Virus record (IMG/VR): IMGVR_UViG_3300025066_000017
Source of the DNA: a virus
Lineage: Duplodnaviria > Heunggongvirae > Uroviricota > Caudoviricetes
Reading direction: 5' to 3' (one strand)
Length of the DNA stretch: 64,000 nt
Shown here: positions 5,584 through 45,613 of the stretch, in pieces
Position numbering within the stretch: position 1 is the first letter of the stretch
Layout: each line of letters opens with the position of its first letter
Position numbers and translations under genes: made by a program
Notes under the pieces: generated by a model
Told to the model about the DNA's origin: nothing
What the model saw: only the letters and a program-made list of their open reading frames with translations
Databases searched by the model: none

Positions 5584-5602
5584 ATCTTTAGAGTCTAAAG
5601 AT
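5584..5602. promoter_or_regulatory. Conserved palindrome ATCTTTAGA(G)TCTAAAGAT, copy 1
   Basis: Exact 9-1-9 palindrome. Lies 7 nt upstream of the start of gene 5272-5577 and downstream of gene 5604-6341. Confidence 0.7.
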
Positions 5603-39373: not shown

Positions 39374-39799
39374 TTAAGCATATTCTACTGCATGACCTTG
39401 ACCGATCATCCAGTAATTAACGTACTTATAGCCTTCACCATCTTCTAGGAAAACATGGATGATATATCTCCCATATTTCCCCGCTTTATCTTTTTCAGAC
39501 CTGATAATGACTTCCTTGCCTTCGATCAAGTCTTGTAAAGCCTCCTTTGCCAGAAGTCCCTTCTCTCTTTCCTCGCCGCGAAGTTCCCATGCATCAATAC
39601 CCGCCAAACGCACGGTCTGATCTCGAAGCCAAACACCAAACCCCAATGAAATATCAAGTTTGACCGTATCTCCATCATATACAGATGTACAAAGCGCTCT
39701 GTATACATAGAAATCATTTTGATCCGGTGGCGATGTTTCGGCATCTCTTTCCCTCTGTGGAAAAATTGTTTGAGATGCGTTTGGCAACAATCCTGACAT
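39374..39799 (-). CDS. Staphylococcal nuclease (SNase/thermonuclease)-like protein
   Basis: VYDGDTVKLDI...VRLAGIDAWELRGEE...KYGRYIIHVF matches the SNase motifs (DGDT...RL.GID.PE plus catalytic Arg/Glu spacing). Confidence 0.7.
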   Translation of the reverse strand: MSGLLPNASQTIFPQRERDAETSPPDQNDFYVYRALCTSVYDGDTVKLDISLGFGVWLRDQTVRLAGIDAWELRGEEREKGLLAKEALQDLIEGKEVIIRSEKDKAGKYGRYIIHVFLEDGEGYKYVNYWMIGQGHAVEYA

Positions 39800-39810
39800 T
39801 TTGTCTACTC

Positions 39811-40395
39811 CTATTTCACAGCACCGATTGAATTCATAAACTCATCGAATTGCTCGGGGGGGATATTCCCTATAGCCGCATTATACCTGTCGGAAACTCT
39901 ATCCACTGGCATGTCTCTGAAGTCCATGTCTTCCTCTAATTTCCCATGAGATCTTTCCAGTTCATAAAGCTCTGCTGCTTCTCCCGTATATCGATCTCGG
40001 GCTTTTGGAATATAGATGGCTTCTCCGGTTTCTTCGTATTGTTTTTGAGCTAAGTGTCGAACTCTGGCGTCAAATCTTTTTGTTGACTCATCTTCACCTT
40101 CATCCAAGTCTGGCTCTATTCCCATAGCAAACTGACGTTCCCACTTGTCAAAGAGAGGATCTCCCGTAAGCGAAAGTTCGTATCCAAGGTGTCGGAGCCG
40201 TACCTTACGAGCCAACTCTTCATCGAACATATAGAGGTCTTCTAAATACTCAACTATCAAATCAGCCTGCTGGCTCATCCCCCATGACGGGTGTGTTATC
40301 GGAAGTTGGTATTTCTTCGTCCACCAAATCCTCAAGAGCGTTAGATGGTTCGGCTCTGTGATGTTCCTGATCGCTATGGCTTCCGCCATCTCCAT
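39811..40395 (-). CDS. ORF overlapping the 3' end of the upstream gene in the +1 frame; candidate second half of a tail-assembly-chaperone frameshift pair
   Basis: 134-nt overlap with ORF 40262-41038. Its frame is +1 relative to that ORF, as verified by hand translation of the overlap. It sits between the tube and tape measure genes, the position of the G/GT (E/E') pair. Confidence 0.35.
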   Translation of the reverse strand: MEMAEAIAIRNITEPNHLTLLRIWWTKKYQLPITHPSWGMSQQADLIVEYLEDLYMFDEELARKVRLRHLGYELSLTGDPLFDKWERQFAMGIEPDLDEGEDESTKRFDARVRHLAQKQYEETGEAIYIPKARDRYTGEAAELYELERSHGKLEEDMDFRDMPVDRVSDRYNAAIGNIPPEQFDEFMNSIGAVK

Positions 40396-41038
40396 GCTCT
40401 GGTTCTCTGGAATTAAGGATGCTTGCGCGAAAGGGGTCTACCAAGGCGGCTTTCTCGTAGATTAAATCTATGAGTTCCATATGGTAGACATTACCTCCTA
40501 TTATCTGGTTGTTATACCAAGGGGGACATTGCGTGATGGTGTATAAAAGAAAGCACATCCTGTCCGCAAGCTCATCCACACCATCTGGAATTCCCCACCC
40601 CGGATTAGTTGGATCGTAGTAATACCCATTCAGCATCGAGCCTTTGCGAGATTGTATGAGCAGTTGAGTGAAGACATTAGGGCGAACCACAGTGAAAGAC
40701 CCCACATAATGAATTCCTTCTATGGTGACATTAAGCTCAAACTGCCGCTCTAATTGAACCTTTGAAACAATGCTTCGCTTTGAATGGTCCAGGGGATGAG
40801 GGTTGGCTGGTGGTAGCCCCGTTTGGGGATGTCCGTAGGGAGACGGTTGCGTGTTTTGGGGCGGATGCCCACCCCATGCACCAGGAGGTTGTTGCCCTTG
40901 TGGAGGATATGGTTGTTGCCCTTGTGGAGGATATGGTTGTTGCCCTTGTGGAGGATATGGTTGTTGTTGGTATTGTCCCTGTTGAGGGGGATACCCTCCA
41001 GGATACTGTCCGGGTTTTCCACTTTGGCCATGGTTCAT
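40262..41038 (-). CDS. Pro/Gln-rich repeat protein; candidate tail assembly chaperone (upstream partner of overlapping pair)
   Basis: N-terminal (PYPPQGQQ)x3 repeats arising from 27-nt tandem repeats at about 40886-40975. Globular C-terminal half. Confidence 0.4.
   Translation of the reverse strand: MNHGQSGKPGQYPGGYPPQQGQYQQQPYPPQGQQPYPPQGQQPYPPQGQQPPGAWGGHPPQNTQPSPYGHPQTGLPPANPHPLDHSKRSIVSKVQLERQFELNVTIEGIHYVGSFTVVRPNVFTQLLIQSRKGSMLNGYYYDPTNPGWGIPDGVDELADRMCFLLYTITQCPPWYNNQIIGGNVYHMELIDLIYEKAALVDPFRASILNSREPEHGDGGSHSDQEHHRAEPSNALEDLVDEEIPTSDNTPVMGDEPAG
40886..40975. repeat. 3 x 27-nt tandem repeat (ggaggatatggttgttgcccttgtgga), coding for PYPPQGQQ repeats
   Basis: Direct reading of sequence at 40861-40980. 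Confidence 0.8.
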
Positions 41039-41082
41039 TTTGGGATCTCCTGATCGACGAAAGAAAGATCTTCTCTTTCTTC

Positions 41083-41496
41083 TTAAATTGTGGACTCGTC
41101 AATGCAACGAGTTGCAACAAAGGCGACGTTCTCGGTAACAATACCTCGAGCCGCCATATCAAAGTTCTTTGTAGTAGCTTTCACACCAATGAAGTGATAA
41201 GCCGTCCTTCCTGTCGCAGATTCTTCGACGGAAGCGGTTAAAGCACCATTTGTCAGAATGTTTGTGTGAATTGGGAAGATGCCGAGGTTTTTCAGAGATT
41301 TCGTGAGGACACGAAACACATTGGCGTTGAGCGATGTTCGATATCCCACCTCGACATACTCGAGAACCTCAACAAAGTCTAGAACATCGACAGGCTCCAT
41401 GTCGACGCTTTCTTCACCAGAAACACCACCCGCATAGGCGACCTTCTGACCATTGATCTTGAAACGACTGCGAACGCCTGCAAATACTTCTGCCAT
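41083..41496 (-). CDS. Tail tube-like / tail-associated small beta protein
   Basis: 137-aa ORF with a strong Shine-Dalgarno sequence (aaggagaaaacaagATG). Lies in the sheath-tube-chaperone segment. Assignment is by size and position only. Confidence 0.4.
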   Translation of the reverse strand: MAEVFAGVRSRFKINGQKVAYAGGVSGEESVDMEPVDVLDFVEVLEYVEVGYRTSLNANVFRVLTKSLKNLGIFPIHTNILTNGALTASVEESATGRTAYHFIGVKATTKNFDMAARGIVTENVAFVATRCIDESTI

Positions 41497-41701
41497 CTTG
41501 TTTTCTCCTTGAAGAAAAAAACATATTCATAACAACCCATAAGGACCTACAAAAAAAGGATTGGTATGAATACGTATGTGGAGATGTCGGGGATAGTTTA
41601 GAGATGAATGGGGAGTCGCGAGAGACTCATGGAACCCATTCTTTGGGGGGAGGCGCAACCGAGAGGGATTCGTGGGAGATGATGTGCCCTAGAGAAGCAG
41701 C
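41497..41701 (+). ncRNA. GGA-rich purine island (candidate CsrA-binding RNA element, strand-specific to the plus strand)
   Basis: At least 8 GGA/GGGA motifs in about 170 nt on the plus strand: aaggac, aaagga, tggaga, ggggat, atggaac, ggggggagg, gagggatt, tgggaga. The complementary strand (the mRNA strand of neighbouring genes) carries only one GGA, the tube gene's Shine-Dalgarno. Lies directly adjacent to the csrA homolog. Transcription was not tested. Confidence 0.25.
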
Positions 41702-41890
41702 CTACTGGGAGGGGTCGTTTGGGTCTGTTGTGCTTTCTTGCTTTTGGAGAAGTTCTTCTCTGTAGATACTGACATCCTTTGGGGCCTTAACCCCAAGCCT
41801 CACGGTCTTTCTCGTTATGGCTTTGACTTCGATGACAATATCTCCATTGATAATGATTCTTTCTCCAACCTTCCTTGTCAACGTGAGCAT
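41702..41890 (-). CDS. csrA: CsrA/RsmA family RNA-binding translational regulator
   Basis: MLTLTRKVGERIIINGDIVIEVKAITRKTVRLGVKAPKDVSIYREELLQKQ aligns along the full length with E. coli CsrA [52 protein letters not shown]. Size 62 aa; aaggaagg Shine-Dalgarno. Confidence 0.85.
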   Translation of the reverse strand: MLTLTRKVGERIIINGDIVIEVKAITRKTVRLGVKAPKDVSIYREELLQKQESTTDPNDPSQ

Positions 41891-41919
41891 TTGCCTTCCT
41901 TGGCACTGGAGGATGTTAT

Positions 41920-42486
41920 CTATCCGAAAACTTGGACTTTGTGTCGCTTGTCGTCGGCAAGGGCTCCAGGATGGATGGTGATGTAGTTGGCGTTGGTCTC
42001 CGCGATATTGTTGAGGCGAATCAACGAATTTTCAAAAGTCCAAGTGGGAGTGGCCCCAAGGACGCCTTTGATGCAGAAGTCTTTGATCGCCGCAAGACCC
42101 ATACCCCAAGCTTTGATATAAATCTCGCTAGTGGTTGTATCTTTTTCGATAAAGACGATAACCAGTTTGGGTTCAAAGCCGCAGTCGATTTCGAGCGTAT
42201 CGGTGTGTCGGAGATCTTTGGTCACATTCGGAGAAGCGGATGTGTCCAAGACTTTCGTTACATCCGTGTGCGTGTTCACACCTACCACTAGGTCGCAGAC
42301 GAGTTCGAACTCAATCTTTTGTTCATGTTTTCCCATAATACTCGCGAGGAAGCGAGCATCGACTTCGGGTGTTCCGCCAGGACCATCTCCGTGATCGCGG
42401 AGATTTGCGAGAAAACTACTGTGTTCGCCACCATGCGGGACAAGACGTGTGTTTGCCATGAGAGACTCCTTGATATCGTGCAACAA
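41920..42486 (-). CDS. Tail tube protein (putative)
   Basis: 188-aa ORF directly downstream of the sheath gene. The palindrome lies between sheath and this gene. Confidence 0.5.
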   Translation of the reverse strand: MLHDIKESLMANTRLVPHGGEHSSFLANLRDHGDGPGGTPEVDARFLASIMGKHEQKIEFELVCDLVVGVNTHTDVTKVLDTSASPNVTKDLRHTDTLEIDCGFEPKLVIVFIEKDTTTSEIYIKAWGMGLAAIKDFCIKGVLGATPTWTFENSLIRLNNIAETNANYITIHPGALADDKRHKVQVFG

Positions 42487-42608
42487 TCGCCCGCATCAAA
42501 ATAACAGGCGGATTTGATCAAAAATGACCAACTCGCGAAGATCATTTCTAGATCTTCAATTATGCATTCAAGCTATGGGAAAAAAAGAATCCCGTCAAGA
42601 AATAACGA

Positions 42609-42627
42609 AATCTTTAGACTCTAAAGT
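42609..42627. promoter_or_regulatory. Palindrome variant ATCTTTAGACTCTAAAGTT, copy 11
   Basis: Between the sheath stop (42743) and tube start (42486). Confidence 0.65.
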
Positions 42628-42742: not shown

Positions 42743-45613
42743 CTATGCGGACAATCTCGGAATCTGGAAATCAAAGTCGATGAGGATGTAGTTAATCCCT
42801 GTCTTTGGAAAGACAAGAACCTTGATCCACACAGTATCTCCCGTCTGCTTTACGCTAAGAGCATACCATGCATGAGTCCACTCATTGTTCTCGTCCAAAG
42901 AATCGACGATGATTCCGTTTTCGCGATCTTCATCCAAAAGATCGCCCATATACTCACGTATAGACGCGATGCCACCCGGAGCCACGTATCGAACACCTGG
43001 GCGCTGATTTCCGGATCCAACACCACCGAATCGATCTTCCATCTTGGTTCGATAGCGGCGTCGGATATAGTTTCGAATTTCAAAAACATTCAAATCCGTC
43101 AATGCAAGATTCGCATCTTGGACATGTGTACTGAATCCCCTGACAAACCTCCACCCTTTTCCGTGGGGTTCGCCGTAGAGAAGGCGACCATCCAACGCAT
43201 CTTTTATATCCAGAGGTTCTTGTGGGTCCCAATCGCCATAACGCTGGACAAGCTCACTGCCTTTGACAAACTTGAGAGTAATGGGTTCACCTAAGTCAGT
43301 ACCCATCATCGTCCCTGCCGCGGCAGCGGCAAGTGCCCATTCGTCCAAGAGCTTGGTTTCACCACCGCTGTTGCTGCGTCGTAACTGCTGTCCTGTCAAA
43401 GCCAAACGCGGTTCATTTGCTTCTCTCACGATGTCCAAAAGACCTTTTGGGAAAACCTTGTTTGCAAAGGTTCCTGCGCGAAGAGGCAATGCCATCCCCA
43501 TAAACCCAATGCGTTCACCCTTATTGTCCTCACAATCCAGGAGATGAGTCTTGAATAGGTTGTGGAGAGTAAAGATGTCGTCTGTAGCCCAATTCGGCTT
43601 ATCTTGCGAAGCTGCGAGAACTTCAACTCGAATATCTCTGTTTTTCAAGAGAGTATCCATGCCGTGTTCCCAAGAAATGGGATACCCAGGAAGAGTTGCT
43701 ACCGATGGTTTTTGAACGATGGATGTTCCAACTTCACCACCCGAGAAACGCCGAAACAAATCTTTATTGTCTTCAGGTTGCGCAGAGCCTATCATCGTGT
43801 TCCAGGCTGCAGAAACGGCTGTGGTGCCTGTAGAGCCAGGACCAACTGCCCGATCTGCAGTGAAGTGACCTATTGAGTTTGCGATAAGATCAAGCATAGA
43901 CTTCAGATTATCGCGAACAGGGAACCCAAGACTGGTGTTTCCCGGCCCTTGTATAAGCTGCGATCCACGAACAAACTCAACAACACTGTCAATAGCGTGT
44001 GCTTTTACCAGGGGATCCACTGTAAGAGTGTCTGTGCCTGTGTCGTTACCAGTGACACGAACAGTCTCTTCATTAGCATCACCCGGCTCAATACGAATCA
44101 GATATGTTACTCCACCAGCCGTCGTGGGGAAGTCGTCGGAAACTTCCAAAGACAGTGTGGTGTCGCCAGTGACAACGGCTGTATCTATGGCAGAGCGACG
44201 ATCTTGCCCATAATGGTCGGATAAAATCCCAAAGTCTAAATCTTTGGTGAGATAGCCGGAACTCACACCATGGCCAATCGTCGAGAAAATTCCGGCTATC
44301 CCATCAAGTTTCTTCTCCAGATCCCCTAGCGTGGGGTATAAGGTCAAATCTAGCGAAATAATTGTGGTAACACCACCACCATCTCGTTTTTGAATCTTGA
44401 GCGATGTGGCCGCGCCATCGGTTCCGCCTATTTCCATATAGACATCAGTAATAGCAAAGACCTTCCACTTCAGTCCGGTGAGGTCTGTTCCCGATGGCAA
44501 TCCAAGTCCGGGACGCATCAAAGAAATAGTAGTAGCCGTGTTGGTGAGAATTTTAAAGCACTTACCCAGAACCGGGGCTTGGGCGGGAACAAGACTACTT
44601 ACTTCAGTAACAATGAGCCATCTGTTGGGCATCAGTGCGGCAGGCACTGTGGTCATCCCACTCCCACCATCCAGGGATGTATTGGTGGCCACCCCTGTTG
44701 CTGTTCCTTCTACTGCACCATTATCTACAGCCTGTGGTATCACCCAGTTTGCAGGGATATTCCATGTTCCTAGTGGGCCACCACCTGTTGGGTCAAATTT
44801 GACATGGAATGGTGTCTTTCTCAATCCACCATAAGGAGTCTTGGCAACCTGAACGCGCTTCGATTTTTTTGTCTGAAGCTCGTAGCTTTGGCTAAGGGGT
44901 TGTCGTCCGTGCTCAATCTCGTTGTCATTTCCATCTGTACCCCAAGGAATAGCCGTCAGTTTCGCTTGAGGAGTAAGAATACGAATAGTAGAAGTGCTAT
45001 CAGGCAGTACATCCCAATCTTGATCATCACGTAATTCCAGCTTCGCTCTACTTGTTGTGAGATCAGTGGAGGCTTGAATAAAACGCTGCTGTCCTTTGCC
45101 CGTCCCACCCAAAACCTCGGCAACAAGATTATTTAGCTCTCCCGTCGCGAAACTGAATGTGGGAGTACTGATGTTTACAAATGCTGGTGTAATCGGATCA
45201 GTTGTATCATCACGCTTTGCCGCATAAGCAGCGGATACTTGCACTGTCGGAAAAGTGAGAGCCTTTACTTGCGATTGCTCAGGATCTCGAACAACCCAGT
45301 ATTCTGCCTGCGTTGTTCTGTTCGGTTTGTAGATGTAAACAACATCAGCACCGCCTTCTACTCTTGTATCCTTTGAAGGATCCATGAGAATCTTGACAAG
45401 ATTCGATGCATCTGATTGACCAAACACGGAATGCGCCGTCTTTGACTCAACAAAGACATGCGTTACACCCGGTTGCCCCCCAGGAGCTTCTGCTATTCCT
45501 CCCGCCACTCGGGTTTCATCAACCCCCGGCTGCACCATACCAGATAAATCAACGTAGACTTCCGCGCCGGGATGTCGAATAACTTTGTTATGAAACAGAA
45601 CTCGATCTGACAT
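42743..45613 (-). CDS. Contractile tail sheath protein
   Basis: 956 aa. N-terminal RHPGAEVYVD / PGVTHVFVE resemble the conserved P-G-V-Y-V-E sheath N-terminal motif. Followed by tube-sized genes and the tape measure gene. Confidence 0.6.
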   Translation of the reverse strand: MSDRVLFHNKVIRHPGAEVYVDLSGMVQPGVDETRVAGGIAEAPGGQPGVTHVFVESKTAHSVFGQSDASNLVKILMDPSKDTRVEGGADVVYIYKPNRTTQAEYWVVRDPEQSQVKALTFPTVQVSAAYAAKRDDTTDPITPAFVNISTPTFSFATGELNNLVAEVLGGTGKGQQRFIQASTDLTTSRAKLELRDDQDWDVLPDSTSTIRILTPQAKLTAIPWGTDGNDNEIEHGRQPLSQSYELQTKKSKRVQVAKTPYGGLRKTPFHVKFDPTGGGPLGTWNIPANWVIPQAVDNGAVEGTATGVATNTSLDGGSGMTTVPAALMPNRWLIVTEVSSLVPAQAPVLGKCFKILTNTATTISLMRPGLGLPSGTDLTGLKWKVFAITDVYMEIGGTDGAATSLKIQKRDGGGVTTIISLDLTLYPTLGDLEKKLDGIAGIFSTIGHGVSSGYLTKDLDFGILSDHYGQDRRSAIDTAVVTGDTTLSLEVSDDFPTTAGGVTYLIRIEPGDANEETVRVTGNDTGTDTLTVDPLVKAHAIDSVVEFVRGSQLIQGPGNTSLGFPVRDNLKSMLDLIANSIGHFTADRAVGPGSTGTTAVSAAWNTMIGSAQPEDNKDLFRRFSGGEVGTSIVQKPSVATLPGYPISWEHGMDTLLKNRDIRVEVLAASQDKPNWATDDIFTLHNLFKTHLLDCEDNKGERIGFMGMALPLRAGTFANKVFPKGLLDIVREANEPRLALTGQQLRRSNSGGETKLLDEWALAAAAAGTMMGTDLGEPITLKFVKGSELVQRYGDWDPQEPLDIKDALDGRLLYGEPHGKGWRFVRGFSTHVQDANLALTDLNVFEIRNYIRRRYRTKMEDRFGGVGSGNQRPGVRYVAPGGIASIREYMGDLLDEDRENGIIVDSLDENNEWTHAWYALSVKQTGDTVWIKVLVFPKTGINYILIDFDFQIPRLSA

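Follow-up and report, generated by a model that had tools for sequence, protein, structure and literature searches.

A csrA gene probably inserted beside an ancestral structured leader of the tail-tube gene in an uncultivated large myovirus

The DNA analyzed here (hereafter "the window") is a 64,000-nucleotide (nt) stretch of a virus of the Caudoviricetes (Duplodnaviria; Heunggongvirae; Uroviricota), IMG/VR record IMGVR_UViG_3300025066_000017, and contains a minus-strand myovirus tail module that spans positions 45613 to 37177. This module presents, in order, the sheath gene, p179, csrA, a 205-nt intergenic gap (41497..41701), the tail-tube gene, p258 and p194 (overlapping open reading frames, ORFs), a gene encoding an SNase-like nuclease, and an ORF of tape-measure size (703 amino acids, aa). 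An earlier reading of the sequence, referred to below as the original prediction, had placed a csrA homolog inside the tail operon; we confirmed this position, between p179 and the tube gene and with the sheath gene upstream. As detailed below, csrA was probably inserted beside an ancestral, structured leader of the tube gene, with the conspicuously GGA-rich plus strand of the gap representing the complement of this leader and not a decoy for CsrA.

The csrA ORF (41702..41890, minus strand) encodes 62 aa (MLTLTRKVGERIIINGDIVIEVKAITRKTVRLGVKAPKDVSIYREELLQKQESTTDPNDPSQ) and is assigned by profile to the CsrA/RsmA family of RNA-binding proteins. The proposal that it is a CsrA homolog over its length was borne out by the profile search, in which it scored 73.6 bits against Pfam CsrA (PF02599; gathering score 27) and covered model positions 1–50 of 53; it also matched the PHROG family phrog_9500 ("CsrA-like regulator"; 5.1e-18) and two PHROG families besides the pair that bears this name (9500 and 8397). 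Residues 1–57 of the RsmE structure 2jpp aligned to the phage protein without gaps. In an alignment of 17 CsrA sequences that included Escherichia coli CsrA and RsmE (alignment A5), residues L2, L4, T5, R6, V8, G9, E10, R31, G33, A36, P37, V40, R44, and E46 were invariant, and K7, which is among the conserved residues of this alignment, is present in the phage protein as well; all conserved RNA-binding residues (i.e., the N-terminal MLxLTR+VGE, GxxAPxxV, and R44 and E46 of the xxREE motif) are there. The acidic, proline-rich C-terminal tail of phage CsrA showed no conservation. The NCBIfam equivalog cut-offs were narrowly missed (65.7 vs 70.1 bits for TIGR00202 and 64.4 vs 73 bits for NF002469), as would be expected for a divergent accessory CsrA copy that lies inside the family. 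The nearest bacterial CsrA proteins were 55–66% identical and came mostly from metagenome-assembled genomes of Bradymonadales, Nannocystaceae, and other Myxococcota, along with some Gammaproteobacteria, which gives a weak hint about the host or donor. FliW (PF02623) was absent among the 57 ORFs (48 + 9) of the window that were scanned against Pfam. The neighboring p179 was considered as a CsrA partner and rejected, as p179 homologues are also found in relatives without csrA.

The csrA gene starts 29 nt past the p179 stop codon, and its own stop codon abuts the hairpin of the tube leader described below. A small hairpin at its translation-initiation region (UGCC-AAGGAA-GGCA; 41892..41905, minus strand), read from the sequence, presents a GGA in its 6-nt loop, one base before the ATG; this hairpin is a candidate autoregulatory CsrA site, although it is suggestive only, as, by the same lenient criterion, 22 of the 56 window genes presented a GGA in some small hairpin loop. 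The best σ70-like match of the region (TTGACA-17-AATCAT, 10/12; 41853..41881, minus strand) is located inside csrA codons 4–13. If active, this site could give rise to a transcript running from inside csrA into the tube leader and could replace the promoter found upstream of the hairpin in relatives; it could also be a chance match, as TTGACA at this point codes for the L-T that is conserved at the N-terminus of CsrA.

The 205-nt gap between csrA and the tube gene is a compositional outlier. On the plus strand, it falls in the top 0.08% of all 205-nt windows for purine content and in the top 1% for G, and it contains nine GGA motifs (at 41543, 41558, 41580, 41591, 41612, 41631, 41649, 41666, and 41675), five of which occur as GGGA and four as A.GGA. 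On the mRNA (minus) strand, the sole GGA of the gap is that of the tube Shine-Dalgarno sequence AAGGAGA (41504..41510); C and G make up 0.30 and 0.16 of this strand, respectively, no other intergenic stretch of the window being richer in C, and the antisense GGA density of the gap exceeds that of every other intergenic stretch. These observations agree with the purine and G richness, the eight or more GGA/GGGA motifs (several in an A(N)GGA context), and the single mRNA-strand GGA that had been noted originally; the tube Shine-Dalgarno had, however, been written as "aaggagaaaac-ATG", and while it is present, three bases (AAG) separate aaggagaaaac from the ATG. Shuffles of the gap that preserve dinucleotides yielded 8.8 ± 1.8 GGA, as compared to the nine observed (P = 0.56), and 2.8 A.GGA, as compared to four observed (P = 0.30); mononucleotide shuffles yielded 5.7 GGA (P = 0.08). 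The composition of the gap is thus a real outlier, but the GGA motif is not enriched beyond it. Being complementary to a C-rich RNA, the plus strand is G-rich and contains many GGA by composition alone. Three of the nine plus-strand GGA complement C-rich loops of the leader hairpin, and the other six fall in the C/U-rich spacer that follows it, where dinucleotide shuffles gave 5.2 ± 1.4. Two small ORFs in the gap (43 aa on the minus strand and 53 aa on the plus strand, the latter overlapping csrA) were considered and found to be unsupported, the conservation pattern of this region being that of a base-paired RNA.

Comparison with relatives indicated the relative ages of the leader and csrA. 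An alignment of tube proteins (alignment A1) was used to collect approximately 155 related loci from contigs of metagenomes and of IMG/VR. The phage itself is represented by no fewer than 14 metagenome contigs. In the eight of these that were compared, which come from different samples, csrA and the gap were 100% identical, with flanks differing by ≤1.1%. When six CsrA queries were compared by tblastn with approximately 170–175 tube-gene loci, csrA was found only in the phage's own contigs, and none of the best 80 csrA-bearing IMG/VR contigs was a tube-relative contig other than those of this phage. Some 150 relatives that keep the gene order had no csrA in the vicinity of the tube gene. The genes for sheath, p179, tube, p258, p194, and tape measure are syntenic in relatives, and p179 homologues occupy the equivalent position in csrA-less loci (L007, L011, L027, and L100); in L007 and L011, a gene designated p159 is followed by a gap of 233 or 136 nt, respectively, and then by the tube gene, with no csrA. 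As csrA was found only in the phage's own contigs and synteny is kept without it, csrA looks like an ordinary, lineage-specific insertion of the moron type between p179 and the leader. In the nine nearest relatives without csrA (tube proteins 63–83% identical), the gap measures 129–233 nt and contains, on the mRNA strand, 0.22–0.37 C and 0.15–0.26 G; antisense GGA outnumber sense GGA (3–7 vs 0–2) in eight of the nine, the ninth (L099) presenting one of each. Since relatives without csrA share the strand asymmetry, this asymmetry predates csrA, and the C-rich, G-poor leader 5′ of the tube gene is, judged from these relatives, ancestral and older than csrA.

Alignment of the relatives' gaps showed a conserved block of approximately 50 nt. 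In the window, this block is a structured RNA hairpin with three stacked helices and C-rich loops (41653..41701, minus strand), which lies at the 5′ end of the tube leader, directly after the csrA stop codon, and is supported by covariation. RNAalifold, applied to 10 lineages aligned with MAFFT from sequence alone (alignment A2), yielded three stacked helices with 15 pairs, nine of which presented compensatory double changes. In this alignment, 96% of the cells were paired, as compared to 25–57% when the 3′ partners were slid, and nine pairs with double changes were observed, as compared to 0–3. The cells included 14 G.U and 2 A.C; this excess of G.U over A.C places the conserved structure on the mRNA strand and not on the plus strand. 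A covariance model built from the element (R1) was used to fit an alignment of 28 distinct sequences (alignment A3), which is biased towards the structure; here, 93% were paired, 12 of the 15 pairs presented double changes, and none of 500 shuffles was as good. In the 64-kb window, R1 gave a single match (41643..41706, minus strand; 64.6 bits, E = 3.6e-14), and it also matched about 35 relatives with tube identities down to approximately 44%. All R1 matches with E < 0.1 were in sense orientation. Their distance from the tube start, on its 5′ side, was 40–150 nt, except in the four loci where an intron splits the tube gene (L045, L046, L111, and L092).

In two relatives (L022 and L045), a near-consensus σ70 promoter (TTGACA-18-TATACT) was identified just 5′ of the element, indicating that the element lies in the 5′ untranslated region (UTR) of the tube transcript. 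Not only the helices but also unpaired nucleotides are conserved (i.e., the loop CA-NNN-CC-Y-AC and the internal loops CU and CCUC), giving an element of about 50 nt with a three-helix stack and a 9-nt, C-rich loop. Beyond the hairpin, the tube leader (41497..41652, minus strand) continues as a C/U-rich spacer, which contains U-tracts and a small hairpin (GAGUC-UCUCGC-GACUC) and ends in the AAGGAGA Shine-Dalgarno; this spacer measures 43–120 nt in relatives. No Rfam 15 family matched the element in the window or in 14 relatives, and a literature search returned nothing relevant. Sequestration of the tube Shine-Dalgarno by the CCUC motifs of the hairpin (i.e., an anti-Shine-Dalgarno function) was not supported, as no consistent pairing was seen in 11 folded leaders. 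In more distant relatives (L058, L144, L042, L052, L059, L092, and L140), two extra conserved hairpins were observed 60–110 nt 5′ of the core element, one of the form CCUGUUGUCC-N-CCAGGC-N-CAGG and the other a GC-rich stem-loop, so that the leader RNA as a whole may extend beyond the core of 50 nt.

Our preferred explanation is that this uncultivated large myovirus has a conserved tail gene order of sheath, p179, structured leader RNA, tube, p258, p194, and tape measure, and that csrA would have been inserted between p179 and the leader in this lineage only. The 205-nt "island" would then correspond to the pre-existing 5′ leader of the tube gene, composed of the hairpin of about 50 nt, the C/U-rich, G-poor spacer, and a strong Shine-Dalgarno. 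We lean towards regarding the hairpin as an undescribed class of phage cis-regulatory RNA, serving as a leader or operator at the tube genes of a broad clade of uncultivated myoviruses (tube proteins 44–83% identical), with a csrA moron that landed at its 5′ edge and a host-reprogramming RNA-binding protein made from the late tail transcript. Co-transcription of csrA with the late tail genes would follow from its distance of 29 nt from p179, the lack of a terminator or convincing promoter between the two, and the copies of a repeated palindrome (described below) that bracket the block at 42612 and 39295, the p179-to-tube stretch itself containing none. As a dimeric GGA binder, the phage CsrA would be expected to act in trans, mainly on host mRNAs, and may, or even probably would, also act on its own start region through the AAGGAA in the hairpin loop. 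For the leader hairpin, we favor a putative role as the operator at which a trans-acting factor of the phage would set tube translation or mRNA stability; a plain stabilizing hairpin seems less likely, because the unpaired nucleotides are conserved too.

Several observations weigh against this explanation. The proposed action of the hairpin in cis on the tube mRNA is read from its conservation pattern alone. The window copy has two U.U mismatches in the outer helix and, at 64.6 bits, the lowest score among the strong matches; it is missing from the minimum-free-energy structure in one folding context and present in another, and may be partly decayed. The spacer, at approximately 147 nt, is longer and more C-rich in the window than in relatives, with no explanation found. 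The plus strand carries a weak promoter-like site (TTGAAA-18-AATACT, 9/12; 41459–41488) from which an antisense transcript would begin at the gap's edge. Lastly, the relatives were viewed within approximately 4 kb of the tube gene, csrA genes located farther away being checked by a partial comparison of contig names.

One alternative is that of the original prediction, in which a plus-strand antisense RNA of 41497–41701 would be a CsrB/RsmZ-like, multi-GGA sponge that titrates the phage CsrA, so that the phage would carry a self-contained Csr module. The nine GGA on the plus strand against one on the minus strand, an antisense GGA density that is the highest among the intergenic stretches of the window, and weak plus-strand matches to a promoter (the site at 41459–41488) and a terminator (41895–41912) flanking the region are all in line with such an RNA. 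However, the GGA and A.GGA counts equal the dinucleotide expectation, the plus-strand fold is no more stable than those of shuffles (z = −0.83), and the weak promoter- and terminator-like matches do not clearly exceed those in shuffles (plus-strand scan totals of 5 vs 1.9 ± 1.4 and 3 vs 1.8 ± 1.6, respectively). CsrB, RsmY, RsmZ, and the other Rfam families were unmatched; at E ≤ 10, only two chance matches to long noncoding RNAs were obtained over 40900–42600, and no match reached the gathering score anywhere in the window. Moreover, the same strand asymmetry is found in relatives that lack csrA within 4 kb, so the asymmetry is not tied to csrA, and both covariation and G.U usage put the selected structure on the opposite strand. 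We therefore consider a sponge extremely improbable, and this part of the original prediction was not upheld. A second proposal, compatible with the preferred explanation, is that the phage CsrA sets the timing of tail assembly, binding the tube Shine-Dalgarno and thereby repressing translation of the tube gene. This Shine-Dalgarno, AAGGAGA, does present GGA in an A-N-GGA context and can form part of a weak hairpin, and the gene immediately upstream is csrA, which probably shares the transcript. On the other hand, the 205-nt leader contains this one GGA only, the next being located approximately 95 nt into the ORF, and high-affinity repression by CsrA, as known from E. coli CsrA, usually involves two or more sites; in addition, the GGA is found in the stem and not in the loop of the minimum-free-energy fold, and the leader with its Shine-Dalgarno is older than csrA. 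The site is also generic, given that 30 of the 56 window genes have a GGA in their Shine-Dalgarno region, a survey result by which we likewise rejected the idea of special CsrA sites on phage mRNAs. Control of the tube gene by CsrA is, overall, unlikely.

Two further explanations concern the leader without reference to CsrA. The C-rich, G-poor leader could represent a region of the Rho-utilization (rut) type, with the hairpin as an antitermination or attenuation element for the tube gene and the tail genes downstream. The base composition over the 205 nt fits this reading, as do the C-tracts that directly follow the hairpin in many relatives (e.g., CCUCCCCCC, CACCCCCC, and CCCCCUCC) and the location of the element 3′ of promoters in L022 and L045; the basis is compositional only, though, and spacers of 43–62 nt in several relatives leave little room for a rut site, which makes this reading distinctly unlikely. 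Still more doubtful is the view that the gap has no function beyond spacing, its composition and hairpin being neutral leftovers. Such a view would accommodate the two U.U mismatches in the window hairpin and a spacer without detectable similarity to those of relatives. It is difficult to reconcile with compensatory changes at 9–12 of the 15 pairs among loci whose tube proteins are 44–83% identical, which point to long-term selection on the structure, with the constant strand and position of the hairpin, or with the 100% identity of the gap in eight contigs of different sample origin, given flanks that diverge by as much as 1.1%; we regard it as very unlikely. Insertion of csrA beside an older structured leader remains the explanation we prefer.

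The other genes in the tail module were examined as well. The sheath gene (42743..45613, minus strand) encodes 956 aa and matches phrog_279 (1.8e-13); by tblastn against GenBank phages, its best matches were sheath genes of Lysinibacillus phages (26% identical), and no annotated close relative was found. The p179 gene (41920..42459, minus strand; 179 aa) is a conserved and ancestral gene of the tail module, located between sheath and tube, for which no Pfam, PHROG, or NCBIfam match was obtained. The csrA ORF had been described as lying between two tube-sized genes; this holds for the downstream gene, which is the tube gene, but p179 is not detectably related to tube proteins, and its candidacy as a second tube protein was rejected (hhalign probability of 0.04% against the tube profile). 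The tube gene (41083..41496, minus strand) encodes 137 aa and is assigned to phrog_985 and to PF26461 (Phi812_tail_tube), the latter assignment being precomputed for the window tube protein and approximately 100 homologues. Group I introns (Rfam RF00028; 44 and 80 bits) split the tube gene in several relatives, specifically at 2514–2715 in L095, at 3666–3963 in L092, and between 2967 and 4001 in L045, where tube exons 1 and 2 are approximately 1 kb apart; the tube gene in the window is intact.

Downstream of the tube gene, p258 (40262..41038, minus strand) contains a tandem repeat at approximately 40880–40960 that encodes QGQQPYPP three times (GGAGGATATGGTTGTTGCCCTTGT on the plus strand). This repeat represents the window maximum of plus-strand GGA density (12 per 205 nt) and varies in the population (258 vs 250 aa); gene callers differ on this region. 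The SNase-like nuclease gene (39374..39799, minus strand; PF00565 and phrog_452, endonuclease) separates p194 from the tape-measure gene and, judged from syntenic relatives that do not have it, represents another moron of the tail module, a lineage-specific insertion like csrA.

A palindrome, CTTTAGA[G/C]TCTAAAG, was found in 16 copies in the window, as compared to 0.01 expected, mostly as a longer form of about 23 bp (AAATCTTTAGAGTCTAAAGATTT). The 15-nt sites are located at 5586, 8137, 10467, 13094, 18738, 23331, 25532, 30987, 34807, 39295, 42612, 45816, 53941, 56154, 57779, and 62380; nearly all are intergenic, on the coding strand, and 10–130 nt 5′ of start codons, and the palindrome is also present 5′ of the tube leader in a relative (L030/L099). 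These copies probably mark transcription units, serving as a phage-specific operator, a promoter-associated site, or a weak bidirectional terminator. Elsewhere in the window, Pfam matches identified accessory genes encoding an Fe/Mn superoxide dismutase, MazG, and proteins with SPFH/Band-7, DUF1643, and T5orf172/MUG113 domains, as well as an intein with a LAGLIDADG endonuclease. The structural proteins are mostly without a Pfam or PHROG match, the portal, baseplate, tail-fibre, and sheath proteins being exceptions, and no tRNAs were found in the window.

The phage CsrA resembles the CsrA/RsmA/RsmE family (PF02599; 1y00 and 2jpp) in its length class and in its gapless alignment, and differs from it in being virus-encoded and located in a structural (tail) operon. 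It likewise resembles the mobile, small accessory csrA genes that are already on record (PHROG 9500/8397, the RsmM type of Pseudomonas aeruginosa phages such as phi297, the "CsrA-like regulator" of Vibrio phages, and PTXU04_00028). We found csrA matches in 46 GenBank phage records, from phages of Vibrio, Pseudomonas, Acinetobacter, Providencia, and others, and in at least 167 IMG/VR contigs searched with two peptide patterns; a survey by Sobrero and Valverde reported csrA in 30 of 2517 phage genomes (PMC7366521), and knock-down of a phage csrA homologue has been associated with smaller plaques (PMC11879866). The window csrA is <50% identical to any copy in GenBank phages. Moreover, the GenBank phages with csrA mostly have genomes of 40–60 kb, and many are temperate-type phages of Pseudomonas or Vibrio, whereas the window csrA belongs to the late tail module of a novel myovirus of large size. 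As for the novelty claimed originally, a csrA gene in a phage is not new as such; what is out of the ordinary is its placement in a tail operon. Mobile csrA genes are believed to enable phages and plasmids to rewire the post-transcriptional control of their hosts, and the gene described here adds to the known pool a case in an unusual late-operon position of a very novel, marine-type myovirus, making it a candidate for studying what a phage CsrA expressed late in infection would do.

With the CsrA-titrating RNAs (CsrB, CsrC, RsmX, RsmY, and RsmZ), the gap has no more than a superficial feature in common, namely many GGA on one of its strands beside csrA. It differs from them in that it shows no excess of GGA, no stable fold, no more than a weak terminator-like match, and no Rfam match on that strand, in that it predates csrA, and in that selection acts on the other strand. 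A methodological lesson is that a strand-biased set of GGA motifs next to csrA does not constitute evidence for a sponge if it mirrors a C-rich RNA on the opposite strand.

The leader hairpin is more novel than csrA and deserves follow-up. It has no similarity in sequence or model to Rfam families and presents a stacked three-helix architecture; as a covarying hairpin absent from Rfam, it is a testable candidate for control of the most abundant tail protein of these phages. Cis-acting hairpins are well known in phages, including the MS2 and Qβ coat-protein operators, the operators of T4 gene 32 and regA, λ boxB/nut, and HK022 put. By analogy, the tube-leader hairpin resembles such operator hairpins in being short, in its location within the 5′ leader of a late gene that is highly expressed, and in the conservation of both its helices and its unpaired nucleotides.

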